DNA of 64,000 nucleotides from an uncultured Candidatus Saccharibacteria bacterium (GCA_965231155.1 OZ246418.1:302850-366849), one strand, 5' to 3'. Shown: positions 2,051 through 50,065, counted from the stretch's first letter. Translations and numbers: made by a program. Notes: generated by a model from the sequence alone, not told the origin.

Positions 2051-2110
2051 AATCTGCTTCCGAGGCCTGTTTTTCAGATGAGAATGAGCTAGTATATATA
2101 GGAAGCTCTC

Positions 2111-2635
2111 ATGCAATTTCAAGTTCCACAGTTTATCGAGGGAGAGGATATGATCATCGGCCCACTGAGCCTTCGCCAGTTCGGCTATCTCTGTCTGGCT
2201 GGTGTATTTAGCGCCATCCTCTATCTCACTATCGATCTTATCCCCTGGATACTTTTCTCGGTCGTCCTTTTTGCGATTGCTCTCGTTATTGGTTTTGTAC
2301 AGATTCAGGGACAGAGCATGTTCCGAATTATTGGCGCGTATCTTCGTTACTTCTGGCGTCCTCAGCACTATGTCTGGCAAGCACAGAAGCAAACAGCGAG
2401 TCAAAAAGATGAAGAACTTCGACTACTTGCCCCTCAGGGTTCGCCCCTGGAAAAAGTAGTTCTTGGTCTCTTTCTTCGCCAAAGCTGGCGAGAACTCCAG
2501 ACTGGCGAGACTAATGCAGCAGGGGAGAAAACTCCTGATGAAAAGATTAAAGAAACGGCCAAACAAGAACAGTACAAGATCTTCCGTCGTTTGACCGGAG
2601 AAAGAAATGCGGCCCGAAGGATCGACTATCGTTAG
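2111..2635 (+). CDS. PrgI-family (VirB3-like) T4SS membrane protein
   Basis: N-terminus QVPQFIEGEDMIIGPLSLRQFGYLCLAG is followed by two TM helices and a YxRYFWRPQHYVW-type segment. This matches the conserved pattern of the PrgI/VirB3-analog family of Gram-positive T4SSs. It sits directly upstream of the VirB4 homolog. Confidence 0.6.
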   Translation: MQFQVPQFIEGEDMIIGPLSLRQFGYLCLAGVFSAILYLTIDLIPWILFSVVLFAIALVIGFVQIQGQSMFRIIGAYLRYFWRPQHYVWQAQKQTASQKDEELRLLAPQGSPLEKVVLGLFLRQSWRELQTGETNAAGEKTPDEKIKETAKQEQYKIFRRLTGERNAARRIDYR

Positions 2636-2695
2636 GAGTAGTTTCTCTGGGGTCTGGCGATAGAATAATTAAGGGTTAGCTATTATACTTTAGAC

Positions 2696-3454
2696 ATGCC
2701 TCTTGATGCTCCCGCAAATAGTTTAAACCTCCTGGCCATACAGGAGATTCATCATGACTGTCTCGTCCTTAAAAGTGGCGGCTTGGTTCAGGTGCTTATG
2801 GTTGGAGGTACCAACTTCTCTTTGAAGCCAGAAAGTGAGCAAAATCTTCTCACTGCCTCCTACCAGAGATTTCTTAATAGTCTTGGCTTCCCAATTCAGA
2901 TTATCGTACACTCTCGAAAAGTTAACATCCAAAAATATTTAAGCAATCTAGAGAAACGACAGAATGAGGAGGTGACGCCACTTCTCCAAAGTCAGATATC
3001 GGAGTACCGCCAGTTTGTTGAGTCTTTCGTCAAAGAGAATCCGATTATGACCAAATCTTTCTTCGTGGTCGTTCCTTATTACGGCGCTGGCATCCAAATT
3101 TCTAAAAAAACAAGCGACGAGGCGGGCAAGAAGAAAGAGAAGTCGAGTTCTCCATTCAGCTTCCTTCCTTTCTTCAAGAAAAAAGAAGTGGAGGAAAAAC
3201 CTGTAGATGAGACAGCTCCCCAGGCCGGCGCGAACGAACCAATAGCCGATCTCAGCAAAGAAGAAGAGCAGAACTTTGCCAAGAGCCTTCTCCAGATGAA
3301 ACAACGAGTCAATCACGTAGTCCAAGGACTCGAGGCCATTGGCTTGCCGGTAAAGATACTCAACGACGAACAACTGATTGAACTTCTTTATAACTTCTAC
3401 AATCCAGAAACAACTGAGAAACGAGAAATGTCACTACCCGCTCACGGCGCCTAA
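2696..3454 (+). CDS. VirB4/TrbE-like N-terminal domain, as a separate ORF or 5' fragment of a split or frameshifted virB4
   Basis: The segment LVLKSGGLVQVLMVGGTNFSLKPESEQNLLTASYQRFLNSLGFPIQIIV resembles the N-terminal domain of Gram-positive VirB4 ATPases (PrgJ/TraE type). The ORF ends 2 nt before the ATPase ORF, which is in a different frame. Confidence 0.45.
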   Translation: MPLDAPANSLNLLAIQEIHHDCLVLKSGGLVQVLMVGGTNFSLKPESEQNLLTASYQRFLNSLGFPIQIIVHSRKVNIQKYLSNLEKRQNEEVTPLLQSQISEYRQFVESFVKENPIMTKSFFVVVPYYGAGIQISKKTSDEAGKKKEKSSSPFSFLPFFKKKEVEEKPVDETAPQAGANEPIADLSKEEEQNFAKSLLQMKQRVNHVVQGLEAIGLPVKILNDEQLIELLYNFYNPETTEKREMSLPAHGA

Positions 3455-3456
3455 CT

Positions 3457-5178
3457 ATGTCTGACTATAATTTTGAACACATTAAGAAAATCATCAGCCC
3501 TTCGGGCGCTGAAGTGAGTTCTAATCATCTTAAACTTGGGAGTAAATATCTGAAGACAATGTTTATTCACTCCTACCCTCGCTATCTGGCGACCGGCTGG
3601 TTTGAAGAACTGATCAACCTCCCAAACATTTTTGATATTTCCATCTTCGTTACTCCAGTAGAAACTGGCATCGCTATAAAAAAACTAAGGAAAAAAGCCA
3701 CCCAGCTAGAAGCGGAGCTTAATGACCGGGAAGAAAAGGGATTGGTGCGTGATCCCGTGTTAGAGACCGCCCTCCAGGACGTAGACACGCTTCGAGACTC
3801 ATTACAACAATCGACAGAAAAATTCTTTCAGATTGGTGTCTATCTGACTATCTATGCCGAAAGTCTTGAGGAGCTTTCCCAACTTGAGAGTCAGATTACT
3901 GGCATGATGGAAGCAAAGCTTATCTATATGAAGCACGCTATCTTCCAACAACTTGAAGGATTCTTCTCGATACTGCCATTCGTGGATGATCAGATTAATA
4001 TCACGACGCCAATGAACTCGGCGCCAATCTCTTCCTTCTTTCCATTCGTATCTGAAGATCTCACCTCAGATACTGGCATTATGTATGGCGTGAATCGTCA
4101 CAACAACAACCTCGTTATCTTCGATCGCTTCACGTTAGAGAATGCCAACCAGGTGGTCTTCGCTAAGTCTGGTGGTGGTAAATCCTATTCGACAAAGCTG
4201 GAACTGATCCGCCAGCTAATGATGGGCGTGGAAATCATTGTTATTGATCCAGAAAACGAATACAAGAAACTGGCCGAGGCTTTCGGGGGAAGTTTCTTTA
4301 ATATCTCGCTCTCCTCCCACGAGCATATTAATCCTTTTGATATTCCGATTATTCCCCAGGGGGAGTCTCCCGAGGATGTTCTTCGATCGCACATCGTCAC
4401 GATGGCCGGCCTGATTAAGCTCATGCTCGGAGGCACCGTAACCGCCGAAGAGGATGCCATCATCGACCGAGCGGTCACTGAAACCTACGCCTCTCGAGAA
4501 ATTGTTCCGGGACGTGATTTCTCGAAAGCCGAGCCGCCTCTCTTGGGGGACATGGAAACGGTTCTTAGGAATATGGAGGGTGGTCGACCAATTGCCGAAC
4601 GACTGTATAAGTTCACTCAAGGAAGCTTTGCTGGGTTTATCAACCAACCGACAAACATTGATGTGAACAACCGCCTGATCATCTTTTCTATTCGAGACCT
4701 CGAAGAGGAACTCCGACCAATTGCCATGTATGTCGTTTTAAACTTCATCTGGAATATCGTCCGAGCAGAACTCAAGAAACGTATCATGATGATCGACGAA
4801 GCCTGGATTATGATGAAACACGAAGACAGCGCTTCGTTCTTGTTTGGTCTCGTGAAGCGGGGCAGAAAATATTATTTAGGCATCACCACCATCACACAAG
4901 ACGTCGAAGACTTCCTGCGTTCTCCCTACGGCCGGCCGATTATCACCAACTCCTCCCTCCAGCTCCTTCTGAAACAGGCGCCGGCTTCTATCGATATTGT
5001 CGGGAAAGCATTCGATCTCAATGAAACAGAAAAAAATCTCATCCTCGCTGCCGAAGTAGGTACCGGACTATTCTTTGCCGGCAAGCGTCATGTCGCCATC
5101 CAGATTATTCCTTCTTACTTTGAAGACAAAATCATCACTACCAACCCAAAGGCCCTCCTGGAGGACGAGAAAAAATAG
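3457..5178 (+). CDS. virB4: VirB4/TrbE/CagE-family T4SS ATPase (C-terminal ATPase portion)
   Basis: Walker A motif VFAKSGGGKSYSTK. Hydrophobic stretch ending in Asp (MMIDEAW) consistent with Walker B. Overall VirB4-like C-terminal domain architecture. Length 573 aa, versus ~800 aa for a full VirB4. Confidence 0.85.
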   Translation: MSDYNFEHIKKIISPSGAEVSSNHLKLGSKYLKTMFIHSYPRYLATGWFEELINLPNIFDISIFVTPVETGIAIKKLRKKATQLEAELNDREEKGLVRDPVLETALQDVDTLRDSLQQSTEKFFQIGVYLTIYAESLEELSQLESQITGMMEAKLIYMKHAIFQQLEGFFSILPFVDDQINITTPMNSAPISSFFPFVSEDLTSDTGIMYGVNRHNNNLVIFDRFTLENANQVVFAKSGGGKSYSTKLELIRQLMMGVEIIVIDPENEYKKLAEAFGGSFFNISLSSHEHINPFDIPIIPQGESPEDVLRSHIVTMAGLIKLMLGGTVTAEEDAIIDRAVTETYASREIVPGRDFSKAEPPLLGDMETVLRNMEGGRPIAERLYKFTQGSFAGFINQPTNIDVNNRLIIFSIRDLEEELRPIAMYVVLNFIWNIVRAELKKRIMMIDEAWIMMKHEDSASFLFGLVKRGRKYYLGITTITQDVEDFLRSPYGRPIITNSSLQLLLKQAPASIDIVGKAFDLNETEKNLILAAEVGTGLFFAGKRHVAIQIIPSYFEDKIITTNPKALLEDEKK

Positions 5179-5181
5179 TGT

Positions 5182-6054: not shown

Positions 6055-6056
6055 CA

Positions 6057-7118
6057 ATGTCATCCTTCTTAACAATACTCATCACTCTGACTTTTTTATC
6101 TCCGTTGGTAGTATTTGGTGCAGACTACGAACTCCCCGCTCGTACCGCCTCAGAGACACTGACGCTACTGACTGGAGCCAGTCCAGCACGGGCGGTGAGT
6201 GATCTTTATAATTTTGCCTTAGGCATAGGTGCAATTGCTGCCTTTGGGTTAATCGTCTACTCAGCCCTCCAATACACCACCACAGATAGTCCGGGGAAGA
6301 GACAGGAGGCGCAGGGGAGAATCTTCCAGTCTCTATTAGGTTTGCTTCTTCTTATTGGTGCAACCTTGGTGTTGAGGTTTATTAATCCTGATCTTCCCAA
6401 CCTCAAGAATCCTGAAGCTCCGCAGTTGGAGGCGATACAGCTGGATACCACGTCTGAATCCTACTGGGTTCTCCAGAAATGCCCGGCGCTTCTACAAGAT
6501 TGCTCAAACGACCTCTCGTACGCTTTGGCTAGTGATCGTGGAGAATACAGTTCGAGAGTTTTGTGCGCTGAAGCAGGTAGTAGTACTATTGGTGGTACTG
6601 AACCAGGCTGGTGGCGATGTGTCGAGAGAACAAGGGATACTTCGGGCCTTGGCGGTACAGCGGGACCAGGATGCGAACCTATCCCTAACCCTGGAGTAGG
6701 CTCTGTCCAGTACATAGAGGAAAAGTTAGCAGGCACGCCCTATGCTGGTTGTTTCGGAGATAAGATTGCAAAAGCTTCAGGAATCATTGGCATAGAAAGT
6801 GGCGGGCAAGAAACTATTGAGAGTCGAACTGACAAGTGCAATCCAGCGCCCCCACGCAGTGTTTCTATTGGATTGTTTCAGATTAATCTCAGCGCTCACC
6901 ACCTTGGTTCTTTGCAATGTGCAAATAAGGCTATCCGTGGACAACTCCGAACAAGTCCAAACGACTGCACTATTATTGACGAGGTCCAGTATGGGCTCTG
7001 TCTGGCCGAGGCGAAAAAAGCCACACCAAATATTATTGAAGCTTGCAAGACTTTTAGAATGAAGAATAATTCCTTTCAGCTCTGGGGACCACAAACCAAG
7101 GAGAAGTGTGGAATTTAG
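6057..7118 (+). CDS. Secreted fusion protein with three parts: signal peptide, a two-helix pilin-like module, and a Cys-rich linker leading to a lytic-transglycosylase-like (lysozyme-fold) C-terminal domain
   Basis: N-terminal hydrophobic leader. A 104-aa module (YELPARTASE...APQLEAI) is identical to the paralog at 8319. The C-terminus carries an SLT-like motif pair, IGIESGGQETIESRTD and SIGLFQINLSAHH (compare ES...GLMQ of family-1 lytic transglycosylases). Confidence 0.5.
   Translation: MSSFLTILITLTFLSPLVVFGADYELPARTASETLTLLTGASPARAVSDLYNFALGIGAIAAFGLIVYSALQYTTTDSPGKRQEAQGRIFQSLLGLLLLIGATLVLRFINPDLPNLKNPEAPQLEAIQLDTTSESYWVLQKCPALLQDCSNDLSYALASDRGEYSSRVLCAEAGSSTIGGTEPGWWRCVERTRDTSGLGGTAGPGCEPIPNPGVGSVQYIEEKLAGTPYAGCFGDKIAKASGIIGIESGGQETIESRTDKCNPAPPRSVSIGLFQINLSAHHLGSLQCANKAIRGQLRTSPNDCTIIDEVQYGLCLAEAKKATPNIIEACKTFRMKNNSFQLWGPQTKEKCGI
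6126..6437 (+). repeat. Copy 1 of a 312-bp perfect direct repeat (pilin-like module coding sequence)
   Basis: 100% identical to 8373..8684 by direct comparison of the sequence. Flanking bases differ on both sides. Confidence 0.9.
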
Positions 7119-7150
7119 CTCTTATACCATTTGCGGTATAATACAGTGGT

Positions 7151-7639: not shown

Positions 7640-7644
7640 TAACC

Positions 7645-8322
7645 ATGAAAAAACTTCTCGCTATCTTCACTCTCGTCTTAGCTCTCTCCTTCCAAAGAAC
7701 CGAAGCTGCTGCACCAACCATGTTCCTGACCTGGAGAACGAACACCTATACTCCGAAAGACTATCCCGGAAAGGCCTTGGTTACTCCCGGATCGAATGTC
7801 ATTTTTTCTATAGAAGTACTGCAAGATGGAAAAATTCTCCCTCTAAAGACCATGATGATCCGTTGGTATGTGCAAGGACATCTTTATAAGAGTGGCCTTG
7901 GTCTTCAGTCATTTAATACATCCGCCAAGGTTCTCTCTGGAAATGATCTGAAAGTACGCGTAGAGATTCCGGACCTCCCAGGAGGCCCTCTTTCTAAAAC
8001 TATGCTTCTTCGAGTAACCGATCCAAAAGTGGTTATCGAAGCACCCTTCCCTGGTCTTATAACTCCAATCAAAGATTTCTTCGTCAAAGCAACACCCTAC
8101 TTTTTTTCCGTCCCTTCTGAAAAAAATCTGTCCTATCGCTGGACGGTCAATGGTAATGTCTTGCCCGAAGGATCGGATCCCCAACTAGTTTCTATAACCG
8201 CCAAGAATCTTCGTCAGTCAACCATTCGAACGCTTTCTTTCCAGATATCAGTAAAGAATCCTAATGAGGACTTCGACCAAACCGATGCCATTAAAACAAT
8301 AACCATTAAGGACACGCCATGA
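7645..8322 (+). CDS. Secreted hypothetical protein
   Basis: Signal peptide MKKLLAIFTLVLALSFQRTEAAAP. Its stop overlaps the start of the next gene (ATGA), suggesting translational coupling. Confidence 0.35.
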   Translation: MKKLLAIFTLVLALSFQRTEAAAPTMFLTWRTNTYTPKDYPGKALVTPGSNVIFSIEVLQDGKILPLKTMMIRWYVQGHLYKSGLGLQSFNTSAKVLSGNDLKVRVEIPDLPGGPLSKTMLLRVTDPKVVIEAPFPGLITPIKDFFVKATPYFFSVPSEKNLSYRWTVNGNVLPEGSDPQLVSITAKNLRQSTIRTLSFQISVKNPNEDFDQTDAIKTITIKDTP

Positions 8323-9350
8323 TTTCTACCTTACTTTCCTTTTTGGGCGCGACAAGGGTCTTTGCAGCTCCTTACGAACTCCCCGCTCGTACCGCCTCAG
8401 AGACACTGACGCTACTGACTGGAGCCAGTCCAGCACGGGCGGTGAGTGATCTTTATAATTTTGCCTTAGGCATAGGTGCAATTGCTGCCTTTGGGTTAAT
8501 CGTCTACTCAGCCCTCCAATACACCACCACAGATAGTCCGGGGAAGAGACAGGAGGCGCAGGGGAGAATCTTCCAGTCTCTATTAGGTTTGCTTCTTCTT
8601 ATTGGTGCAACCTTGGTGTTGAGGTTTATTAATCCTGATCTTCCCAACCTCAAGAATCCTGAAGCTCCGCAGTTGGAGGCGATAGGGGTAGCGAGTAGTA
8701 CCGCAGAGGGAGAAACCTCTTATTGGACAATTCAAGTCTGCCCCAAAAGAGAAGATTGTAGTGAAGAAGACTACGAAGACCTCGCCCCTAGAGATGAGGG
8801 CCATTATACCGACAGAAACGCGTGCCTAGGAATGAATACCGCCATTGGCGAAGAACCGGCTCGCTGGCGATGTGTCGAGAGATTTACTGGCCAACCAAGC
8901 GCCCTGGTCCCTATCGATGACAGTGTGGCTCAGCAAAGAGAGGAGGCGGTTCGCGCTCAACTTCGAGGATATGGAATTGAGGTCAACAACAAGGCCTGCG
9001 TCCCTTATACTGCCCGCTACCAGGACGTACCTGGAAGTTGCACAAATGTTGGAGGCCTACCAAACGGAGTTCTTTCAAAACTAGGAGTTCTTAATCCGCA
9101 GTTTCCAATAATCATTACTGGGGGGTCTGAAGCCGGGCATCTCTCTCACGGAGTAGGGGAGCCTTCGGTGGATATAAAACCTGCTCGTCGTAGCTCGCCA
9201 CCATCGGCAGGTTGGTGTGAACTTGAGAGGTTGGTTAAAGAATTAGGGATTGATGAGGCTCGGTCACAGTTTGAGTTACGCGGGGTGCCGCTCGATGCGG
9301 GCTGTAGAGCTAATCCGCCACCAGACCACTATCATGTACGCTTTGATTAA
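8319..9350 (+). CDS. Secreted fusion protein with three parts: signal peptide, a two-helix pilin-like module, and a Cys-rich linker leading to an M15/LAS-type zinc peptidase-like cell-wall hydrolase domain
   Basis: Same 104-aa module as 6057..7118. The C-terminus has SHGVGEPSVDI (compare SxHxxGxAxD) and DHYHVRF (compare EPWHxRY), the two zinc-ligand motifs of VanY/M15 D-Ala-D-Ala carboxypeptidase-like enzymes. Confidence 0.5.
   Translation: MISTLLSFLGATRVFAAPYELPARTASETLTLLTGASPARAVSDLYNFALGIGAIAAFGLIVYSALQYTTTDSPGKRQEAQGRIFQSLLGLLLLIGATLVLRFINPDLPNLKNPEAPQLEAIGVASSTAEGETSYWTIQVCPKREDCSEEDYEDLAPRDEGHYTDRNACLGMNTAIGEEPARWRCVERFTGQPSALVPIDDSVAQQREEAVRAQLRGYGIEVNNKACVPYTARYQDVPGSCTNVGGLPNGVLSKLGVLNPQFPIIITGGSEAGHLSHGVGEPSVDIKPARRSSPPSAGWCELERLVKELGIDEARSQFELRGVPLDAGCRANPPPDHYHVRFD
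8373..8684 (+). repeat. Copy 2 of the 312-bp perfect direct repeat
   Basis: Identical to 6126..6437. Confidence 0.9.
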
Positions 9351-9362
9351 TTATTCGAATCC

Positions 9363-19423: not shown

Positions 19424-21109
19424 TTGAACTACATGGTTCTTCAGCCAAGAGATATTCAACAGAAAGTTTCTCAGATTCGTCGCGAGGCGGAGGAGCGAGC
19501 GGCTCAGGCGCGTGCTAAGCAGGCCGGCGTTGGATATGTCGATGTTCGGAAATCGCCGACTTCTTTAGATGCGCTGAAACTTTTAACCGAAGAGCAGTCC
19601 AGAAAAGCTCAGGCGGTAGTCATTCAGAAAGGAAATGGCACAGCTGCCTTAGCCGCCTATGATCCGAAGAGTGAAGAGGTGGCGGGAGTTCTTAAGATTA
19701 TTGAAGAGAAGGGATTTAAGGTGAAACTTTTTACGGTTTCTGAAGACAGTCTTGAGGAGGTGTGGAAGATGTATCGTTTCGTGTCTCAGGAGGTAAAAGA
19801 TATTACAGGGAATGTTGAGGTTACGAAGGATAATTTTGAAGAGACCAAGGCGCGACTGAAGGATTTTCACGGAGTAGAAAAAGAGTTTGCCGATTTAGAT
19901 TATGACAATATTCCAACCACTAAGTTTTTTGAGTTGGTGCTGATTGGTGCGATTACTTCGCGTGCTTCAGATATTCACTTGGAGGCCGAAGAGAAGGGTG
20001 CGCGTTTTCGGTATCGTATCGATGGCGTGTTGCACGATGTTTCGGCCAAAGTGCCAACGAGAAATTATGAAAATATTGTGACGCGAGTGAAGTTGCTCTC
20101 GGGATTAAAGTTAAACATTAAAACAGAAACACAGGACGGACGTTTCACAATTCGTTTAGCTGAAAAAGATATTGAGATGCGCGTGTCGATTATTCCTTCT
20201 CAGTACGGAGAGACGATCGTGATGCGTATTTTGGATCCGGCTGGTATTAACGTGACTTTGGCTCAGCTTGGTTTTCGAGCAGATGATCTGGAGTTGGTAC
20301 AGCATGAGCTGAACCGCCCGAATGGACTGATTTTAAATACTGGCCCAACCGGTTCGGGAAAAACAACAACGCTGTATACTTTTTTGCGTACGGTCAGCAG
20401 CCCAGAGATGAAGGTAATTACTATTGAGGATCCGGTGGAGTATCACCTGCCGGGGATTTCTCAGACGCAGACCGATCCCAAGGCGGGATATACATTTGCC
20501 AGTGGTCTGAAGGCAATTCTCCGACAGGATCCGGATATAATTCTCGTTGGTGAAATTCGTGATTTAGAGACGGCGGAGATTGCTATGAACGCCTCGCTCA
20601 CCGGTCACTTGGTGTTTTCCACACTTCATACAAATGATGCCTTAGGAGCAGTGCCTCGTTTTGTGGACTTAGGTGTAAAACCAGCAATCTTGGGGCCGGG
20701 CTTGAGTTTGGTTATTGCGCAGCGTTTAGTTCGAAAGCTTTGTGAGAAGTGTAAAAAACTGACCACCCCAACCGAGGAGATGGTTCAGAAGATAAAAGTT
20801 TTTTTGGAGAAACTTCCAAAACGAGTAGCTCGCGAACCGTATCAGGATTTCAAGATTTATGAACCGGCTGGCTGTGACGCGTGTGGCAACTTTGGATACA
20901 AGGGTCGTGTGGGTATCTATGAGTTCTTTCGCAATACGCCAGAACTTCAGGAGCTAATCGCTCAAGGAGTTTCTGTGGTGGCGCTTCGTAAAGAAGCGGT
21001 CCGTCAGGAGATGATCTTTTTACAACAGGATGGGATTTTGAAAGTACTTCAGGGTATGACTACGTTTTCTGAAGTGGAGGACGTGACTGGCGAGATCGAG
21101 TGGACATAG
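19424..21109 (+). CDS. GspE/PilB-family secretion or type IV pilus assembly ATPase
   Basis: Walker A GPTGSGKTTTLYT. C-terminal tetracysteine (CEKCKK...CDACGN). GspE N-terminal-like domain. No pilC/pilM/pilin genes adjacent. Confidence 0.85.
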   Translation: MNYMVLQPRDIQQKVSQIRREAEERAAQARAKQAGVGYVDVRKSPTSLDALKLLTEEQSRKAQAVVIQKGNGTAALAAYDPKSEEVAGVLKIIEEKGFKVKLFTVSEDSLEEVWKMYRFVSQEVKDITGNVEVTKDNFEETKARLKDFHGVEKEFADLDYDNIPTTKFFELVLIGAITSRASDIHLEAEEKGARFRYRIDGVLHDVSAKVPTRNYENIVTRVKLLSGLKLNIKTETQDGRFTIRLAEKDIEMRVSIIPSQYGETIVMRILDPAGINVTLAQLGFRADDLELVQHELNRPNGLILNTGPTGSGKTTTLYTFLRTVSSPEMKVITIEDPVEYHLPGISQTQTDPKAGYTFASGLKAILRQDPDIILVGEIRDLETAEIAMNASLTGHLVFSTLHTNDALGAVPRFVDLGVKPAILGPGLSLVIAQRLVRKLCEKCKKLTTPTEEMVQKIKVFLEKLPKRVAREPYQDFKIYEPAGCDACGNFGYKGRVGIYEFFRNTPELQELIAQGVSVVALRKEAVRQEMIFLQQDGILKVLQGMTTFSEVEDVTGEIEWT

Positions 21110-42434: not shown

Positions 42435-43721
42435 ATGCAATTTTCTAAAAGACAGATCTTTTTAGTTATCTCTCTGATCGCGGGTATTGGAATAACAATT
42501 TTTCTTTTGTATTCCAGCATAAAAACTGAGGATACTGGCCCTGGTTCTATTAACGCAGCGAAAAGGACAAATAAGTTGGTGGTGTGGGGAGTGGATGATT
42601 CGAGCGCTTTCGCCACGATTAAAAAGAATTTTGAAGCTACCTATAAAGACGCGTCTGTAAATTATGTGCAACTTGATGAGGCGGTTATTCAGAGTCAGTT
42701 AGTGCAGGCACTGGCCAACAATCAAGGTCCGGATGTAATTATGATTAAAAACCGGACGCTGGCGAGACAGAAAAACTTTTTAGCACCAGCACCGGCCACG
42801 AAGATGAGCCTATCTCGATTCCGAGGTCTTTTTCCTACCGTAGCCGAACAGGATTTCACCGATTCAGGTCGTCAGATTTATGCTCTGCCTTTGTCTATTG
42901 ATACCCTGGCCTTAATTTACAACAAAGATTTTTTTGATCAGGCGAGAATTATTCAGCCTCCAGCGACGTGGACGGAGTTGGCGGATATCGTTCCTCAGTT
43001 GGTAAAACCGGGGAAGGGAGGACAGTTTGATCGATCAGCCGTTGCTCTTGGTGGTTCGAATAAGTCGATGACGAATGCCGGTGATGTCCTGACACTTCTT
43101 TTCATGCAGAGCGGCGCACGACTTGCTTCGGGTGAATTGGGAGTTGATGGACCTGGTCGTAAGGCTCTCAATTTCTATCTTCAGTTCTCTAATCCTCGAT
43201 CGTTGGCCTATACCTGGAATGATCTCCAGTCTAATGATCTTCAGAGTTTCGCTAACCTTCGAGCTGCTATGGTTATTGCGTACAAGAGACAGATCCCTTT
43301 TATCACCAATCAGAATAGTTTTGTGAACTATGGGATCGCATCAGTTCCTCAGTTGAGTACAGACAGAGTTGATTATGCAAATAGTTGGGGGCTGGCCGTT
43401 ACTCGAAATAGTCGCTTTTCGGCGAGAGCTTGGGATTTTGTAGTCTATGCAACAACGGTACAGCAGAATGCTCAGGCGTATAGCCAGGCGACAAAACTTC
43501 CTCCAGCGCTTCGAGAGCTTTTGGCCACCAACTATAACGATCCTGAACTTGGTGTGTTTGCTCAGCAGGCCCTCACCGCTCGTTCTTGGAACTCTCCCGA
43601 CGAAAAGCAAACGAGAGATATCTTCTCCGGCATGGTTGATTCTTATCTGACTGGACAGATGGATCAGGAGTCAGCGCTTGGTCGAGCACAAAATATACTG
43701 TCTCAAATATTTAGAAAATAA
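42435..43721 (+). CDS. ABC transporter substrate-binding protein (family 1, sugar-type)
   Basis: N-terminal TM/signal anchor, then KLVVWGVDDS...YVQLDEAVIQSQL, typical of extracellular solute-binding proteins. Confidence 0.75.
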   Translation: MQFSKRQIFLVISLIAGIGITIFLLYSSIKTEDTGPGSINAAKRTNKLVVWGVDDSSAFATIKKNFEATYKDASVNYVQLDEAVIQSQLVQALANNQGPDVIMIKNRTLARQKNFLAPAPATKMSLSRFRGLFPTVAEQDFTDSGRQIYALPLSIDTLALIYNKDFFDQARIIQPPATWTELADIVPQLVKPGKGGQFDRSAVALGGSNKSMTNAGDVLTLLFMQSGARLASGELGVDGPGRKALNFYLQFSNPRSLAYTWNDLQSNDLQSFANLRAAMVIAYKRQIPFITNQNSFVNYGIASVPQLSTDRVDYANSWGLAVTRNSRFSARAWDFVVYATTVQQNAQAYSQATKLPPALRELLATNYNDPELGVFAQQALTARSWNSPDEKQTRDIFSGMVDSYLTGQMDQESALGRAQNILSQIFRK

Positions 43722-43725
43722 GACT

Positions 43726-44238
43726 ATGTTCTTGAAGCCATACTTTCTTTTTGTCGGAGTTCTCTTGGTTTTTGTTCTAACTCTTTCCATTCCTCAGGCG
43801 GCGCTTGCTGCAGGCGCGAATCAGTGCAAAGTAGAAACTCCCCAGTTCTTACCAGGCGGATACTGGGGTCAGAATCCGCCACTCCTTCCTTGTGGAATAG
43901 GTCCGATTGAAACACGAGTGGATTGTTTGGAGTGTGGCCTTTGTGGTCTTCTGATGCTGGGGCAGCGAATAATCTACCTCATGTTGAGCTTTCTTTTCTT
44001 CGTGGTGGCACCTATTCGATTTATTTGGGGAGGGTTTCTTATTCTTGTCTCTCGTGGATCAAGCGAAACCGTCGCGCAGGGGAGAAAGATGATATATTAC
44101 ACCGTGATCGGCCTAATGATTGGTCTGGGAGCGTTTCTCATCGTCCAGACATTTCTCTGGCTTCTTGGTAATCTGGGTGGCGATCAGATCGGCTGGCCCG
44201 ATATAAAATGTCAACGGAACATTCGCCCATTGAGTTGA
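43726..44238 (+). CDS. Pilin-like paralog 1 (VirB2/TrbC-like T4SS pilin candidate)
   Basis: Signal peptide, Cys-rich N-terminal region, and a C-terminal two-helix module (LLMLGQRIIYLMLSFLFFVV...SRGSSETVAQGRKMIYYTVIGLMIGLGAFLIV) with the same pattern as paralogs 2-8. Start set at the internal Met (MFLKPYF). Confidence 0.6.
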   Translation: MFLKPYFLFVGVLLVFVLTLSIPQAALAAGANQCKVETPQFLPGGYWGQNPPLLPCGIGPIETRVDCLECGLCGLLMLGQRIIYLMLSFLFFVVAPIRFIWGGFLILVSRGSSETVAQGRKMIYYTVIGLMIGLGAFLIVQTFLWLLGNLGGDQIGWPDIKCQRNIRPLS

Positions 44239-44272
44239 GGGTGTTTTATTCTCTGAAAATTGATTACAATGT

Positions 44273-44677
44273 GTGCATAAAGAAAATATGAAAAGTTTAC
44301 TGCCTGGAGCCGGATTAGTTTTTCTTCTGATAGTAGTCGCAATGCCACTGCACGTTCTTGGAGTGGGACCAGGAGATCCCGGCGATGGCACGATTAGTCT
44401 CGCCGATCCCTTTAACTGTAGTACTGCTACTTCTGATGCCCCTTGCTTGATTCAGGTTCTAGGAGGAATCATCGGTCGCTTCAGTCAGATCGTGGTGCCT
44501 GTTCTTGTGGCAATGATTTTGTACGGAGGATTTCAGATGATGGCTGCCCGGGGCAGTACTGAGAAGTATGGTGCAGGAAAGAAGACTATCACTTACGCCG
44601 TCATTGGTTTTGCGGTCATCCTGGTCTCTCAGGGGATTGGATATATCTTGATTGATCTCCTTACGAGGCGAGCCTGA
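44273..44677 (+). CDS. Pilin-like paralog 2
   Basis: Signal peptide. C-terminal module VLGGIIGRFSQIVVPVLVAMILYGGFQMMAARGSTEKYGAGKKTITYAVIGFAVILV. Confidence 0.6.
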   Translation: MHKENMKSLLPGAGLVFLLIVVAMPLHVLGVGPGDPGDGTISLADPFNCSTATSDAPCLIQVLGGIIGRFSQIVVPVLVAMILYGGFQMMAARGSTEKYGAGKKTITYAVIGFAVILVSQGIGYILIDLLTRRA

Positions 44678-44760
44678 GGATTTTTGATTTTGCTTCTTGA
44701 TATGCTATACTCTTTAAACATATAAAAGGTCGGTATTTCCTTATATTATTTTCAATTGTA

Positions 44761-45144
44761 ATGACAAAGAACTTTAAAATTACCTTAGGAGCAGCTTCGA
44801 CAGCTTTGGTGTCTTTGGTGCCAATGGCTACTTCGTTTGCCTTCGTGACCGCTACTTTGCCAACGTTTACTCAGGTTGAGGCGCCAAAGGGTGGTAACGA
44901 GATTACTTCCTTCAATGGCATCTTGGCTATCTTAGTAACCATTTTGGGTTACGTCCAAGCTTTGTTCTGGATTGCCGCTGTGTTTACTGGTCTCTATGCC
45001 GCTTTCATGTACCTCACTGCTGGTGGTGAAGGAGAAAAAATCTCCAAAGCTAACCAGATGTTGATCTACACTGTTGTCGCGGTTATCGTGGCTGTTATCG
45101 CTTACTCGATCCCGGCGTTCGTGAAGACGACTATCCAGTCATAG
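44761..45144 (+). CDS. Pilin-like paralog 3
   Basis: C-terminal module YVQALFWIAAVFTGLYAAFMYLTAGGEGEKISKANQMLIYTVVAVIVAVIAYSIP. Confidence 0.6.
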   Translation: MTKNFKITLGAASTALVSLVPMATSFAFVTATLPTFTQVEAPKGGNEITSFNGILAILVTILGYVQALFWIAAVFTGLYAAFMYLTAGGEGEKISKANQMLIYTVVAVIVAVIAYSIPAFVKTTIQS

Positions 45145-45166
45145 TATCTTTAGAGATTATCTCTAC

Positions 45167-45195
45167 AAAAAAGACCCTTTTTGGGTCTTTTTTGT
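45167..45195 (+). terminator. Rho-independent terminator after pilin paralog 3
   Basis: aaaaaagaccc-ttttt-gggtct-tttttg. Confidence 0.6.
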
Positions 45196-45317
45196 TTCCA
45201 CTTTTTGATTCACAACGAAGCTCCTAACTGGCCTCCCATTATGCCTCTTGGATATGGGAGGGCAGTTAGGAGCGAGTCACTTGTTGCTTTTTTTGTCTTA
45301 CGGTAGAATAAATACTA

Positions 45318-45665
45318 ATGAGAACTTATGCGTCTATTCTGTTTTTCATAATTCTTGGTGCGCCGTTAGTTTCTTTTGCAGTTGCAGTACCCACTTGTGG
45401 TCCTAGTACTTCTCCTCTCTGCAATGTGGATGATGTCATTAGCTTAATTACCGCATTGGTGAATTATATGCAGGTCGTGTTTTGGATTTTGGCGGCAGCC
45501 TCAGGGCTCTATGCAGGGATACTGTATCTTCGGAGTGGTGGTAAGCCAGAAATGTTAAAGAGTGCCGAGAAACAACTTATCTATACAGTAGTGGCGGTCG
45601 CTGTAGCCGTCATGGCATACGGCATTCCTAAGCTTGTCGATAGTTTCTTACGTCTTCGCGCTTAG
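45318..45665 (+). CDS. Pilin-like paralog 4
   Basis: C-terminal module YMQVVFWILAAASGLYAGILYLRSGGKPEMLKSAEKQLIYTVVAVAVAVMAYGIP. Confidence 0.6.
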   Translation: MRTYASILFFIILGAPLVSFAVAVPTCGPSTSPLCNVDDVISLITALVNYMQVVFWILAAASGLYAGILYLRSGGKPEMLKSAEKQLIYTVVAVAVAVMAYGIPKLVDSFLRLRA

Positions 45666-45677
45666 CTTGATCTTTTT

Positions 45678-46229
45678 ATGAACCTACAAGAGGTCATCCA
45701 GGTAAAGAAAGTGTCCTCGGTAGTATCTTTCCCGATTGTTTTTTCTTTCATTTTTTTTATAATCTTTTCTTCCGGAGCTTTTCCAGTTGCCAGAGCAGAC
45801 TATCGTTGCGAAATTGCCGGTCCAAGCTTTGGCAATGTGTATGGGAGTGCAATTGATTGCTCAACGAGCTGTGGTGGTGTATGTGCGTCAGTTCCTGGTG
45901 GGGGAGGATCTTCGGGTGGTTCCGGGTTCACTCCGAGATATCCAACCTCTCGGTTGCCAGAAGGTGGTAATGCACCCGTAACAAATGCCGGACAAGTTTT
46001 GGATGTCGTAGTAAATATGTTGAACTTTGCGCAGGCCGTGTTTTGGGTGATGGCCGCCGGCTTTGGTCTCTATGGCGCCTACCTCTATCTTTTCTCGCAG
46101 GGAAACAAGGAGAGTGTTACTCAGGCCAAGAATATGATGGTGTATACTGTAGTAGCAGTGATGATTGCCATAATTTCGTACGGTATCCCTGCAATTATTA
46201 ATAATTTTGTGGCAATTAGTACTTCTTAA
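45678..46229 (+). CDS. Pilin-like paralog 5
   Basis: Cys-rich N-terminal region (ADYRCEIAG...CSTSCGGVCAS) plus C-terminal module FAQAVFWVMAAGFGLYGAYLYLFSQGNKESVTQAKNMMVYTVVAVMIAIISYGIP. Confidence 0.6.
   Translation: MNLQEVIQVKKVSSVVSFPIVFSFIFFIIFSSGAFPVARADYRCEIAGPSFGNVYGSAIDCSTSCGGVCASVPGGGGSSGGSGFTPRYPTSRLPEGGNAPVTNAGQVLDVVVNMLNFAQAVFWVMAAGFGLYGAYLYLFSQGNKESVTQAKNMMVYTVVAVMIAIISYGIPAIINNFVAISTS
46053..46136 (+). repeat. 84-bp identical tract, copy 1 (inside pilin paralog 5)
   Basis: Identical to 46444..46527 by direct comparison; encodes AAGFGLYGAYLYLFSQGNKESVTQAKNM. Confidence 0.85.
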
Positions 46230-46230
46230 T

Positions 46231-46620
46231 ATGAAAAATTATTATAAATTAGTCGGTTTCTTGGGAGGAGTTGTTTCTTTGGGTGGTGTTTTCGTGAGTG
46301 CCACAACGGTTCAAGCAGTTTGGAATCAGTATCCAACGTTTAGCGATCCACCGAGAGGGAATGCGCCGATTACCAGCGTCAATGATTCTTTGAATATTAT
46401 TGTGAATATTATCGACTTTGCGCAGGTTGCGTTTTTCATTCTCGCCGCCGGCTTTGGTCTCTATGGCGCCTACCTCTATCTTTTCTCGCAGGGAAACAAG
46501 GAGAGTGTTACTCAGGCCAAGAATATGTTTATTTATATGGCCGTTGCCATCTTTGTGGCTATTATTGCCTATGGAATCCCTTCTATCGTTGTAAACTTTG
46601 TAGACATAAGTATTTCTTAA
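46231..46620 (+). CDS. Pilin-like paralog 6
   Basis: The track ORF starts at 46207 and overlaps paralog 5, so the start is taken at MKNYYKLV just after that gene's stop. The C-terminal module is nearly identical to paralog 5. Confidence 0.55.
   Translation: MKNYYKLVGFLGGVVSLGGVFVSATTVQAVWNQYPTFSDPPRGNAPITSVNDSLNIIVNIIDFAQVAFFILAAGFGLYGAYLYLFSQGNKESVTQAKNMFIYMAVAIFVAIIAYGIPSIVVNFVDISIS
46444..46527 (+). repeat. 84-bp identical tract, copy 2 (inside pilin paralog 6)
   Basis: Identical to 46053..46136. Confidence 0.85.
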
Positions 46621-46623
46621 ATC

Positions 46624-47220
46624 ATGATACTCAAACAAGAGATTCGTCTAATAGTTTGTGGAGTATTCCTTTCTTTTGCTTTTTTAGTTTTCCTGGGAGT
46701 AACTGCCCCTCAACTAGCCCGAGCCGATTTTGTGTGTGAGGCGTATGGTACTCGAGTAAGCGATGAGGTTGCTTGTAATCACGACTGTCCAGATGCTTGT
46801 GTGCCAGTCGGTCGTTCTGGAGGAAGTGTGGCAACTCCTCCTTCATCAGCACCAGCATCGACGCCAGCACCTTCTCGAACTCCTTCAAGGACTGCGCCGG
46901 GAGTGAATCGTTTTGCCAATGAAAATACCCCATACCCTCATAATGTTGCCGACCAGATTCCTCGAGGGGGCCCAATTAGTGATGTGGATAGTTTTTTGTA
47001 TATTCTTACGGCGATTATTGAGTTTGCGGAAGCAATATTTTGGATTCTCGCCGTTGGCTTCGGTCTCTATGGCGCCTATCTGTATCTCTTCTCTCAGGGA
47101 AATTCAGAAAAGGCGGGGCAGGCCAGGAAGATATTTATATATGCAGCCATTGCTTCACTTTTAGCCATTGTGTCGTACGGCATTCCTGGTCTTGTTGAAA
47201 GTTTTGTCTTAGGATATTAA
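46624..47220 (+). CDS. Pilin-like paralog 7
   Basis: Cys-rich N-terminal region (ADFVCEAYG...CNHDCPDACVP), a Pro/Ser/Thr linker, and C-terminal module FAEAIFWILAVGFGLYGAYLYLFSQGNSEKAGQARKIFIYAAIASLLAIVSYGIP. Confidence 0.6.
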   Translation: MILKQEIRLIVCGVFLSFAFLVFLGVTAPQLARADFVCEAYGTRVSDEVACNHDCPDACVPVGRSGGSVATPPSSAPASTPAPSRTPSRTAPGVNRFANENTPYPHNVADQIPRGGPISDVDSFLYILTAIIEFAEAIFWILAVGFGLYGAYLYLFSQGNSEKAGQARKIFIYAAIASLLAIVSYGIPGLVESFVLGY

Positions 47221-47738
47221 TGCAAACTATGAATATTTTTAAAAGAATAGGACTGTCGGTTTCTTTGCTTTTGATTGTTATTACGACATTTGCGCCAATA
47301 TCTGCAGGGGCTATTTCTCGTTCTCGTCCGGGAGAGAGTCGAGTTTGTTTTGGGGTGGGTAATACGATAATCGATCTGAGCGGTCTTCCTTGTTTTGCGG
47401 GAATCTGTCTTCAGGCTGATCTTGAAGATGGTTGTCGAAGACTTGGTGGAACGTATGGAGTGATGCCTCAGTATACCGGTCCAGCGAGAACCAATGCGCC
47501 AGTTCAAGACGTCAATGATTTCCTTCAGATTCTTACCGACCTGGTGAGACTTGCCCAGATGGTCTTTTGGATTTTTGCAGTCGGCTTTGGTCTCTATGCT
47601 GCCTATCTTTATCTCTTTTCTGGAGGGAGTAAGGAGAGTGTTAGCCAGGCGCACAAGATGTTGATTTATACTGCCGTGGCATCATTAGTGGCAATTCTTG
47701 CGTACGGTATTCCGGGAATCATCGACAGCTTCTTCTAA
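47220..47738 (+). CDS. Pilin-like paralog 8
   Basis: C-terminal module LAQMVFWIFAVGFGLYAAYLYLFSGGSKESVSQAHKMLIYTAVASLVAILAYGIP. Confidence 0.6.
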   Translation: MQTMNIFKRIGLSVSLLLIVITTFAPISAGAISRSRPGESRVCFGVGNTIIDLSGLPCFAGICLQADLEDGCRRLGGTYGVMPQYTGPARTNAPVQDVNDFLQILTDLVRLAQMVFWIFAVGFGLYAAYLYLFSGGSKESVSQAHKMLIYTAVASLVAILAYGIPGIIDSFF

Positions 47739-47820: not shown

Positions 47821-48255
47821 TTAACGGGGGAGTATGGAAACGGTAACTGGTTTGTTACCGTTCTTACTCCCGTCGTTCCGAAACCGAATCGCCGTAATCC
47901 GGCTTTTCGGTCTTGTGACTTTTTCCGGTTCGTAGAGAACCGCTGAGCTGTCGGGTGGCTCGCTTTCGTAGTATCTCACGACCCCTACTGGCAGGTCGTG
48001 GTCGATCCAGAATCGACCTGGGGGCATGAGGACCTTCCCGGTCTCGCACTCTCCAAGGACCGGAATGATGATTTTCCCGCCTCCGGCAGCCTGGATCTCT
48101 CGGACGTAGTCCCACTCTTTGCCGCAGCGAAGAGTGATGACTAGCTGTTGTTTCGGTGGCGGTGCCTCCTCTTTGTGGAGCAGGAGGATGGCCACCACGA
48201 TGGCGATTGTAATGACGACCGGAATGGCCGCCAGCTTCTTTTGCTGAGCAGTCAT
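47821..48255 (-). CDS. Membrane-anchored protein co-transcribed downstream of the SPFH gene; possible NfeD-like partner (weak)
   Basis: N-terminal TM helix LAAIPVVITIAIVVAILL plus a ~110-aa soluble domain. Its start overlaps the SPFH stop. Elevated GC. Confidence 0.35.
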   Translation of the reverse strand: MTAQQKKLAAIPVVITIAIVVAILLLHKEEAPPPKQQLVITLRCGKEWDYVREIQAAGGGKIIIPVLGECETGKVLMPPGRFWIDHDLPVGVVRYYESEPPDSSAVLYEPEKVTRPKSRITAIRFRNDGSKNGNKPVTVSILPR

Positions 48256-49268
48256 TATCTCCTCTCTCCTCTCATGAGGATCTCCTCAAGACTTCTCGCC
48301 CCGATAGCCTTCTCGAGCACCAGAGCGAATCCACCGATCGCCTGGACTAGCCCAGGAATCGTGAATCCCTTGCCTTCGCGAGTGGCCTTCCATTCCATCA
48401 CGATTCGAAGAGCTTCCGGGAGTGAAATATCCTGTCCAAGATTCTGAGCGACCTGGACGATCTGTTGGGCCTTGAGTAGATCAGTCTCTTGCTCGTAGGC
48501 CTCACCTCGCCGTTCCTCTTCCTCGACGGCGTGTCTCTCCGCGGCCTTAGCGAGGTCTCCTTCTGGAGCGATCTCGCCGATGTTGAGCCGTTTGATGATG
48601 ATGCCGAGCGATTCTTTGCAGAGTCGCCCGTTACCATTCATCGCCTCGACCATTTGTTCGTCGGTTATGTCTCCGACGATGGCCCGCAAGATTTGCTTGA
48701 TACCTTCTGTTTTTGTGGACGTCATGGTTTCCCATGTCATCCCTTCACCGAAGGCCCAGGTCCGGAGTTGCTGGCGAACGACGTCGGCGAGGATGTTGCT
48801 CACGCCAACCTCACCACCATTATCGAGATAGGTGATGGTGTTGCCTGGATCAGGAACCCAGGTCAACGACGTCGGCACCTTGACCTCGGCTCCGTCTCTC
48901 ACTCGGACCTTTTCGTCAGGAAGATCCTGGTTGACGGCCTGAACTTTGATGGGGATGAAGTCAAAAAAGAACGCTGGGAAGAATCGGAGTCCTTCCTTTT
49001 TTGTTCTCTTCAACCTTCTTCCCAGAAAGGTCACCTGTCCGACATGGGGCGGATTCGCCTCGATGGTTTTGAGGCTTAGGATGGCGTAGAACGCTGGGAG
49101 GTTGATTCCCAGCACAACGAAAAGAATTCTTGCCAAGAGAAGACTTCCGGTTGCCCAGAACATTCCTCCGGCAATTACACCACTGATGGTCACACAGGTG
49201 ACCAACAGGAAGAAGAAGATTAAGAACTCTCCTCCGTTCAGGGTTTCATCTTCCCTCCACCATTTCAT
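48255..49268 (-). CDS. SPFH/band-7 (flotillin/stomatin-like) membrane protein
   Basis: Two N-terminal TM helices followed by an SPFH-like region (VNQDLPDEKVRVRDGAEVKVPTSLTWVPDPGNTITYL...ADVVRQQLRTWAFG) and a coiled-coil Glu/Ala-rich C-terminus. Start set at the internal Met (MKWWRED). Confidence 0.65.
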   Translation of the reverse strand: MKWWREDETLNGGEFLIFFFLLVTCVTISGVIAGGMFWATGSLLLARILFVVLGINLPAFYAILSLKTIEANPPHVGQVTFLGRRLKRTKKEGLRFFPAFFFDFIPIKVQAVNQDLPDEKVRVRDGAEVKVPTSLTWVPDPGNTITYLDNGGEVGVSNILADVVRQQLRTWAFGEGMTWETMTSTKTEGIKQILRAIVGDITDEQMVEAMNGNGRLCKESLGIIIKRLNIGEIAPEGDLAKAAERHAVEEEERRGEAYEQETDLLKAQQIVQVAQNLGQDISLPEALRIVMEWKATREGKGFTIPGLVQAIGGFALVLEKAIGARSLEEILMRGERR

Positions 49269-49496
49269 GGCATGTCTCCTTCCGCGCTTTATGCGCATTG
49301 TTTTCAGTTGTCGAAATGTCCCACTGGGACGAACCGCAGGGACCATCCCTTTGGAACATTTACTGTTTATTATTATAACACTGATAAATAGATTAGTCAA
49401 ACACAGCATTTTCATTCTTTTCTTCTCGGAAAAGCGAGTTTTTTAGGTAAATAAAAACCCCGATAAAACTAGGTTTTATGGGGTTGATTGGGTTTG

Positions 49497-49537
49497 CCTA
49501 GGGTGTCGATCACTTTCGTGACGACACCCTAGGGCTT
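49497..49537. terminator. Hairpin terminator downstream of the GC-rich minus-strand gene
   Basis: 12-bp inverted repeat cctagggtgtcg / cgacaccctagg with a 14-nt loop. Confidence 0.5.
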
Positions 49538-49549
49538 GGCCGAGGCGAG

Positions 49550-50065
49550 CTACTGGAGCTCGGCCTCGGTGAAGTTGAAGGACTTGGCCTCGGTAACGAC
49601 TTTCGCCACCTCTCCCTTCACGGGAGACTTCTTCGCGGCCGCGTAGCGGTCGCGAAGATCGGCGAGGATGACCTGGCGGAAGCTGTCGAGGTCGCTGGCG
49701 CCGGGGATGTTCTCAACATCCTTCTTCCCGGCTTCCAGAATCCGCACGATGCGATCCACGATCGCGCGGGTCGAGCCGAACGAGATCGTCGTCGACCCAT
49801 TGACGCAGACCTCGGCGCGGTCGTCACCCCTGCTTTCCAGCAGGATGACCAGATCGCCGACGATAGCCTTACCATCGGTTTCTTCCGGGGGGGTCGACTC
49901 CCACGGCGTTTTCGCCGTCCAGCCGCGGAGCGCCTTGCAGAGCTCCGAAACGGGTGCGACCGTCTTGCCGTTGATGCCGTCCCGCAACGCTTTGTCAGCG
50001 TGCGCGGTGGCAGCGGTCAGAGTGATAGCCAAACCAATGGCCAGGGTTGTGACGAGCTTCGTCAT
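49550..50065 (-). CDS. Secreted hypothetical protein encoded by a strongly GC-rich gene
   Basis: Signal peptide MTKLVTTLAIGLAITLTAATAHA. The coding sequence is visibly above 60% GC with GC-rich third positions, which also creates spurious overlapping ORFs in other frames. Confidence 0.5.
   Translation of the reverse strand: MTKLVTTLAIGLAITLTAATAHADKALRDGINGKTVAPVSELCKALRGWTAKTPWESTPPEETDGKAIVGDLVILLESRGDDRAEVCVNGSTTISFGSTRAIVDRIVRILEAGKKDVENIPGASDLDSFRQVILADLRDRYAAAKKSPVKGEVAKVVTEAKSFNFTEAELQ

Follow-up and report, generated by a model that had tools for sequence, protein, structure and literature searches.

A tandem array of eight paralogous T4SS_pilin-family genes in the genome of an uncultured Patescibacteria bacterium

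What is encoded by eight related genes that lie side by side in a very small genome, and do the copies stand in for one another or do they have roles of their own? This question is raised by a locus in a 64,000-nucleotide stretch of DNA from an uncultured Candidatus Saccharibacteria bacterium (GCA_965231155.1, OZ246418.1:302850-366849), which is referred to as the window and is numbered from its first letter. The organism is a member of the Patescibacteria (Candidate Phyla Radiation, CPR). Eight open reading frames (ORFs) follow each other on the plus strand at 43726-47738, encode proteins of 115-198 aa and are named W1 to W8 (Table 1). An earlier note, made by a model from the sequence alone, described these genes as a tandem array for small secreted proteins with a C-terminal pilin-like module, and regarded the proteins as pilus subunits of a type IV secretion system (T4SS) that undergo diversification and gene conversion. 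The eight ORFs are present at the coordinates that were given there. The array probably encodes VirB2-like pilin paralogs that serve the monoderm-type T4SS of this organism.

All eight proteins can be aligned over a C-terminal module of about 80 aa, in which G, E, Y and I residues are invariant. The consensus of this alignment, ...FWIxAxGFGLYGAYLYLFSxGxxExVxQAxKMxIYTVVA..AYGIP..., is close to that of the earlier note. The pairwise identity of the modules among the window copies ranges from 16% to 64%. AlphaFold2 predicts the module as a two-helix hairpin (residues 4-38 and 44-82, mean predicted local distance difference test score (pLDDT) 83), in which helices of 35-39 residues are connected by a short G..E..K/R loop. 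These predicted helices are longer than one membrane span, and the N-terminal extension of the helix is conserved and amphipathic. The N-terminal segments of the proteins were described as signal peptides, and all eight indeed look like cleavable Sec-type signal peptides, as judged by a heuristic inspection of the n-, h- and c-regions and the -3/-1 rule. Each has a basic n-region (+1 to +2), an h-region of 13-21 residues and at least one site that fits the -3/-1 small-residue rule. With the scissile bond marked by a slash, the candidate cleavage sites are ALA/A in W1, VLG/V in W2, SFA/F in W3, SFA/V or AVA/V in W4, ARA/D in W5, VQA/V in W6, ARA/D in W7 and AGA/I in W8. The mature proteins have N-terminal extensions of up to about 80 residues with cysteine pairs. 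The number of cysteines in the mature protein is 2, 4 or 6 for six of the eight, in agreement with the description of a variable region that often contains paired cysteines, and is zero for W3 and W6. W3, W4 and W6 have almost no ectodomain.

PF18895 (T4SS_pilin) is the only Pfam family that is matched by all eight proteins, so that the array is not a chance pattern. The PF18895 score is 40.3 bits for W2 and 11.2-22.8 bits (E 1e-4 to 0.4) for the other seven copies, and nearly the whole model is covered by these seven. A profile built from the eight modules detects 42,540 representative proteins (E<=1e-3) in an exhaustive search. When 40 family members, including the eight window copies, are sampled, PF18895 is matched by 37 of them (best E 3.5e-17) and PF04956 (TrbC/VirB2) by seven (best E 2.5e-6). 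NCBIfam NF045849, for which the cut-off is 40 bits, is matched by W2 at 26 bits and by the other copies at 9-17 bits or not at all; these weak matches extend over the full model for six of the eight copies and for the two fusion proteins described below. No holin or bacteriocin family of Pfam or NCBIfam is matched at E<=1, so the module has not turned out to belong to a non-pilin family of this kind. At the level of profile comparison, assignment of the array module to the PF18895 family is supported.

The window represents the region of the chromosome origin, with rnpA, yidC, dnaA and dnaN at approximately 11.2-15.2 kb and a sign change of the GC skew at that position. A monoderm-type T4SS cluster, with a likeness to the machinery by which bacteria with a single membrane conjugate, is located at 212-10613, directly upstream of rnpA-yidC-dnaA. 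The PrgI/VirB3-like, TrsD-like and VirB4 proteins are encoded by separate adjacent genes of this cluster, which also contains the gene for a 612-aa protein and several other genes without assignment. Neither a relaxase nor a coupling protein is recognised among the cluster genes scanned. Two further proteins of the cluster, those encoded from 6057 and from 8319, have the same module as the array proteins at their N-termini, with PF18895 scores above the cut-off (Table 1), as was noticed earlier. The earlier note referred to them as hydrolase fusions. The module part of this description holds, whereas the hydrolase part is backed by motifs and by weak or transitive Pfam matches. The 6057 protein matches SLT_3 (PF18896) weakly (E 0.066), its homologs P0182 and P0184 pass the cut-off of that family, and the lytic-transglycosylase motifs ES...GLFQIN are seen in the alignment of its C-terminus. 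The C-terminus of the 8319 protein shows an LAS/M15-like H...D / HxH motif, which was read by eye in the alignment and is not backed by any Pfam, NCBIfam or PDB sequence match. Sequence searches of the PDB, and a Foldseek search with the full-length AlphaFold2 model of the 6057 protein (pLDDT 72), do not bear out a lysozyme fold, and neither of the two C-terminal assignments is confirmed by the fold search. Thus, on the basis of these motifs and matches, the 6057 and 8319 proteins may be described as wall-hydrolase-like.

If the array proteins serve this T4SS, the established biology of VirB2 and TraA, from which the following steps are inferred, leads to a scheme. Each array protein would pass through Sec, lose its signal peptide to signal peptidase I and then reside in the membrane, where its two ends would face outward and its basic G..E..K/R loop the cell interior. 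A VirB4-driven machine would extract the pilins and build a surface filament or conduit at the site of host-cell contact, and the variable, disulfide-bonded N-terminal segments would face outward in this filament or conduit. Several points weigh against the assignment of the array proteins as T4SS pilins. The array is not next to virB4 but starts 38 kb away from it, and is bounded by gyrA and the gene for a solute-binding protein on one side and by the gene for an SPFH protein on the other. The PF18895 cut-off (26.6 bits) is passed by W2 alone among the eight copies, and PF04956 is matched by none of them at E<=1. When an alignment of the 40 sampled members is compared by hhalign with seven annotated VirB2/TrbC proteins of type T mating-pair formation systems (MPF_T) from plasmids, the register is collinear but the similarity is weak (P 0.024, probability 2%; P 0.011-0.024 over all comparisons with these seven). 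Comparison of the module profile with all PDB chains gives only chance-level matches (E>=0.2), and no solved pilin is found by sequence or fold searches of the PDB, where a fold match is not diagnostic because the shape of a helical hairpin is too generic. Furthermore, a T4SS pilus has not been observed in any member of the Patescibacteria (PMC12857230), and monoderm conjugation systems are normally without pili (PMC12102498). Thus, the identification of the proteins as T4SS pilins stands insofar as PF18895 is matched by all eight and VirB2-like arrays of this kind have been published, but a direct match to PF04956 is not obtained; likewise, their designation as pilus subunits holds for membership in a pilin family, whereas formation of a pilus is unproven.

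These points leave room for the alternative that the hairpin is a mere two-pass membrane anchor, and that the proteins either display small, variable, adhesin- or receptor-like ectodomains or form parts of the T4SS channel, without a pilus. This alternative is possible but rather unlikely. It agrees with the finding that the same module anchors wall-hydrolase-like domains in the 6057 and 8319 proteins, and with the presence in relatives of polypeptides that each combine 2-10 modules and have the look of polytopic membrane proteins. It also agrees with the statistical weakness of the likeness to canonical VirB2, with conjugation of monoderm bacteria without pili and with the lack of an observed T4SS pilus in Patescibacteria (PMC12102498, PMC12857230). 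However, helices of 35-39 residues exceed the length that a membrane span requires, and their conserved amphipathic N-terminal extension resembles that of conjugative pilins. In addition, W3, W4 and W6 have hardly any ectodomain to display, TrbC/VirB2 is matched by seven of the 40 sampled family members, and the published view is that proteins of this kind are pilins (PMC12102498, PMC12857230).

Related loci were found with the neighboring solute-binding protein as the query. The relatives, metagenome genomes with the label Patescibacteria, Parcubacteria or Paceibacterota, have GyrA proteins that are 68-88% identical to that of the window. The order of genes common to them is that for an S1 protein, a metallo-beta-lactamase-fold protein, gyrA, the gene for the solute-binding protein and the pilin array. 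The number of modules per array in these syntenic relatives is 3, 4, 5 or 7, and is 14 in the relative L025. In a tree of the modules, the sequences are grouped by position in the array and not by genome. Types 1 and 2 are common to all related genomes in the tree, and W1, whose orthologs in the relatives are 59-80% identical to it, represents the oldest type. In the closer relatives L008 and L009, separate orthologs are found for types 3 and 4 and for types 6, 7 and 8. The arrays of these two relatives are complete, with seven genes, and lack a gene that corresponds to W5, which is orthologous to L007_5 (encoded on a truncated contig) and to P0041. Each type has a positional ortholog in genomes where the GyrA identity to the window is no more than about 87%.

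When the modules of W1 to W4 are compared with those of the closest relative, L007, the ratio of nonsynonymous to synonymous substitution rates (dN/dS) is 0.01-0.06. The lower end of this range is that of W3, whose module is 99% identical to that of L007_3. The dN of the N-terminal parts of the same proteins is 5-15 times higher than that of the module, and their dN/dS ratio is 0.08-0.58, which is still below 1. As judged from these substitution rates, the hairpin cores are under strong purifying selection and the N-terminal regions evolve faster. Because the copies are old, individually conserved and constrained, they point to distinct roles rather than to free-running variation. Because each type is kept as a distinct ortholog, the paralogs are probably non-redundant, for example as major, minor, tip or base subunits or as host-specific alternatives.

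In L025, the same syntenic locus encodes a fused form of these proteins. P0026 (L025:8001-9821) is a protein of 606 aa with seven PF18895 modules and one signal peptide. Its ORF is uninterrupted in the standard code, and is present on four contigs (assemblies of ENA, Logan and JGI). Seven single-module pilin genes on its flanks bring the array at L025:7005-12262 to 14 modules. Downstream of the gene for P0026, four genes for 106-aa proteins are closely alike, as if duplicated recently. Multi-module proteins, with up to ten modules in 966 aa, make up most of the best matches of the exhaustive profile search, where ranking by total score favors such proteins. Concatenation of the module is topologically consistent, because both ends of the hairpin are on the same side of the membrane. 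It is conceivable, though distinctly unlikely, that the array encodes several components of a T4SS filament or conduit that are arranged in order, with a defined place for each conserved paralog type, and that the poly-pilins are covalently concatenated versions of it. If this is the case, a bacterium with a single membrane would have a heteropolymeric conjugative-type pilus that is concatenated in part, and no T4SS is known to have such an architecture.

W5 and W6 share an exact identity of 84 bp, which was pointed out earlier and ends precisely at the coordinates listed in Table 1. The 28 codons of this tract contain no synonymous and no nonsynonymous differences. In the module outside the tract, the proportion of synonymous differences (pS) is 0.65 and that of nonsynonymous differences (pN) is 0.33. 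Constraint on the protein cannot explain the identity, because pS is 0 inside the tract but 0.65 outside it, and a recent transfer of sequence is indicated. This comparison supports gene conversion between W5 and W6. The tract extends over helix 1 and the loop into the beginning of helix 2, that is, the conserved core and not the variable part, so that the copies are homogenised rather than diversified. In the distant relative L015, a 71-nt exact match between two array modules (13814-13884 and 14222-14292) represents an independent homogenisation of neighboring copies. A second kind of exchange concerns a cassette of four cysteines with the spacing C-x12-16-C-x3-C-x3-4-C, which directly follows the signal peptide in W5 (45800-45880) and W7 (46735-46800) and has no Pfam match. 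In the relative L006 (10539-11111), this 4-Cys cassette with a signal peptide is attached to a type-2 pilin, and is closest to that of W7 (41% identity over 92 aa); the E-values for this cassette come from a tiny database and are indicative only. This result suggests that the N-terminal 4-Cys cassette has been exchanged between paralog types.

Identical tracts of this kind also affect assemblies. Short-read contigs from the same sample series break in the tract: L002 begins at the position corresponding to 46444, L001 and L003 begin at 46498, and another contig ends near 46082, inside the W5 copy of the tract. A 946-nt contig from another sample of the series (L029:1-946) matches the window at 45339-46136 and 46415-46675, and thereby connects the front part of W5, via the tract, with the end of W6 and continues into W7; it encodes the protein P0001. 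This contig is either a true recombinant with a 391-bp deletion or an assembly chimera. Since identical tracts within arrays break short-read assemblies, the sizes of arrays in metagenome-assembled genomes are probably underestimated.

The tracts in W5/W6 and L015, the W5/W6 hybrid contig, the presence of the 4-Cys cassette on a type-2 pilin in L006 and on types 5 and 7 in the window, and the 5-15-fold faster evolution of the N-terminal regions all speak for a system of antigenic or phase variation, in the style of Neisseria pilE/pilS or of the multiple virB2 genes of Anaplasma and Bartonella, in which gene conversion would keep producing new surface variants that follow hosts or evade defences, and an analogy of this type has been raised in the literature (PMC12102498). 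Nevertheless, this explanation is improbable. All eight genes are complete, with a start codon, a signal peptide and the full module, and there is no silent cassette among them. Conversion concerns the conserved core, where it homogenises the copies, the types have positional orthologs in genomes with a GyrA identity of about 87%, and dN/dS is below 1 even in the N-terminal parts. Thus, the array copies do not look like interchangeable variation cassettes, and the part of the earlier note that concerned diversification was overstated, whereas that concerning gene conversion is borne out. It is very hard to believe that the array encodes small membrane proteins with no part in secretion, be they similar to holins, bacteriocins or immunity proteins or a domain of unknown function, that have just a hydrophobic hairpin in common, because the weak sub-threshold matches to DUF3180, FixQ and DMAC1 that would favor it are scattered, below the cut-offs and different for each copy, whereas PF18895 alone is common to all eight, the same module is found within the T4SS cluster, and holin and bacteriocin families are not matched.

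The coordinates of the array genes and of the other features are summarized in Table 1. W1 has an extra insertion in the hairpin, a CxxCxxC motif at the start of the module and a C-terminal tail with Cys. The ortholog of W2 in L007 begins at the position equivalent to the ATG codon of W2. All eight genes face away from the replication origin. Neighboring genes in the W4-W8 run are separated by at most 12 bases, and two hairpins are located between W3 and W4. The first is terminator-like. The second, which occurs only once in the window, is strong, with a predicted RNA folding energy of -42.1 kcal/mol (z = -6.45), and may serve as another terminator or as an RNA element. The array probably consists of at least two transcription units, because terminator-like and stable hairpins follow W3 and because W4 to W8 are tightly packed. 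In a scan for consensus promoters and terminators, sites are no commoner than in shuffled sequence, and both hairpins after W3 are missed.

Table 1. Features of the window that are discussed in the text, with their positions
Feature	Coordinates	Strand	Properties
PrgI / VirB3-like	2111..2635	+	PF12666 32.1 bits, above cut-off
TrsD-like	2696..3454	+	NF041427 TrsD, E 3.8e-9
VirB4 ATPase	3457..5178	+	NF045971 VirB4-like CD1110 family, 388 bits (cut-off 325)
Pilin module with putative SLT / lysozyme-like C-terminal domain (VirB1-like)	6057..7118	+	PF18895 30.7 bits, N-terminal
Pilin module with a different C-terminal domain	8319..9350	+	PF18895 30.6 bits, N-terminal
W1, pilin paralog type 1	43726..44238	+	170 aa ORF; PF18895 19.2 bits, E 0.0013
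W2, pilin paralog type 2	44288..44677	+	129 aa from ATG; 134 aa from GTG at 44273
W3, pilin paralog type 3	44761..45144	+	127 aa, 0 Cys
Terminator-like hairpin 3' of W3	45167..45193	+	GACCC-TTTTT-GGGTC between A-run and T-run; read by eye
Strong hairpin between W3 and W4	45220..45273	+	20-nt arms, one mismatch, 14-nt loop; T-rich stretch after
W4, pilin paralog type 4	45318..45665	+	115 aa, 2 Cys; opens tightly packed W4-W8 run
W5, pilin paralog	45678..46229	+	183 aa; N-terminal 4-Cys cassette
Gene-conversion tract, W5 copy	46053..46136	+	Exact 84-bp match to W6 copy
W6, pilin paralog	46231..46620	+	129 aa from ATG; 137 aa from possible TTG at 46207; 0 Cys
Gene-conversion tract, W6 copy	46444..46527	+	Exact 84-bp match to W5 copy
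W7, pilin paralog	46624..47220	+	198 aa; 4-Cys cassette and Pro/Ser/Thr-rich linker
W8, pilin paralog	47220..47738	+	172 aa, 4 Cys; start overlaps W7 stop (TAATG)

The solute-binding protein (SBP_bac_1) encoded directly upstream of the array, at 42435-43721, is membrane-anchored; genes for an ABC permease or ATPase do not adjoin it. Its gene is found in the same position in every relative examined. A functional link between this protein and the array is not adopted, because the whole neighborhood, including the genes for the S1 and metallo-beta-lactamase-fold proteins and gyrA, is syntenic, and the adjacency of the solute-binding protein is therefore not specific evidence. On the other side of the array, the G+C content of the region 48001-50000, over the minus-strand SPFH/Band_7 gene (48255-49415), is 0.55, as compared with approximately 0.45 elsewhere. 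The window also contains a gene for a PilB/GspE-type ATPase at 19424-21109 (T2SSE, 386 bits), which indicates that machinery for a type IV pilus or for type II secretion is encoded too, distinct from the T4SS pilin array.

Tandem arrays of VirB2-like pilin genes in Patescibacteria have already been published, and the present locus is a clear new example of them. From 3,035 Patescibacteria genomes, examined with PF04956 and PF18895, Quinonero-Coronel et al. (2025) obtained 441 VirB2 arrays in 383 assemblies. These arrays comprise 2-11 pilin genes, their mean identity is 25% and the maximum 54%, and they were likened to the virB2 paralogs of Bartonella and Anaplasma (PMC12102498). Positional orthology, conversion tracts or gene conversion, and pilin fusions are not mentioned in that paper (PMC12102498). 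In Southlakia epibionticum, the T4SS cluster includes a predicted pilin series, which Wang et al. (2023) showed to be essential (PMC10633639). According to a review of 2025, this species has six divergent VirB2-like pilins, for which only a 'potential' to form a pilus is stated (PMC12857230), and the T4SS of Patescibacteria is the first that has been shown to be essential for the growth of a bacterium (PMC12857230, PMC10633639).

Patescibacteria rely on host-cell contact, and the one cultivated species that has been tested cannot do without its pilin series (PMC10633639, PMC12857230). Since such arrays are already known, the locus in the window matters as a clean and fully assembled example. 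The old and individually conserved types, the constrained cores, the faster N-termini, the exchange between copies and the fusions argue for non-redundant subunits, and the poly-pilin fusions and the stable positional orthology are the more unusual points. The comparative data also provide concrete constructs, namely single types and fused versus split versions.

The array shares its membership in PF18895 with the T4SS locus of S. epibionticum ML1 (SEML1_0006-0019), the array of N. lyticus TM7x and the 441 published arrays. Like these Patescibacteria arrays, it consists of small tandem genes for Sec-exported two-helix proteins with low identity between copies, and is associated with a relaxase-poor, monoderm-type T4SS near dnaA. 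Unlike them, it lies outside the T4SS cluster, 38 kb from virB4, at a locus defined by gyrA and the solute-binding protein. The identity of the W5 and W6 modules (64%) and their exact 84-bp tract also go beyond the maximum of 54% that has been reported.

The array proteins resemble VirB2, TrbC and TraA in the signal peptide, the amphipathic N-terminal helix, the two hydrophobic helices, the short basic loop and a similar size of the core, and VirB3 and VirB4 are encoded in the same genome. They differ from these classical pilins in the lack of a direct match to PF04956 among the window copies, in their N-terminal extensions of up to about 80 residues with paired cysteines and in the single-membrane organization of the organism. 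A small two-helix protein in the T4SS of a wall-less or single-membrane bacterium is also represented by Mbov_0395, the pilin-like conjugal transfer protein of a Mycoplasma integrative and conjugative element (ICE; NF045849). Mbov_0395 is encoded by a single-copy gene on a mobile element, whereas the array is chromosomal, and all NF045849 scores in the window (9-26 bits) are below the cut-off of 40 bits.

Bartonella and Anaplasma phagocytophilum, which also depend on a host, likewise have a T4SS pilin gene in several divergent tandem copies, the virB2 paralogs. Those paralogs belong to MPF_T systems of diderm bacteria that face the immune system of an animal. In contrast, the window copies are conserved positional orthologs under purifying selection, and the partner of the organism is presumably another microbe. 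Non-reciprocal transfer of sequence between tandem pilin paralogs is known from Neisseria pilE/pilS. The Neisseria pilins belong to an unrelated family, that of the type IV pilus, in which the donors are silent, truncated cassettes and conversion occurs in the variable regions. In the window, the array has complete copies throughout, and its tract is part of the conserved core.

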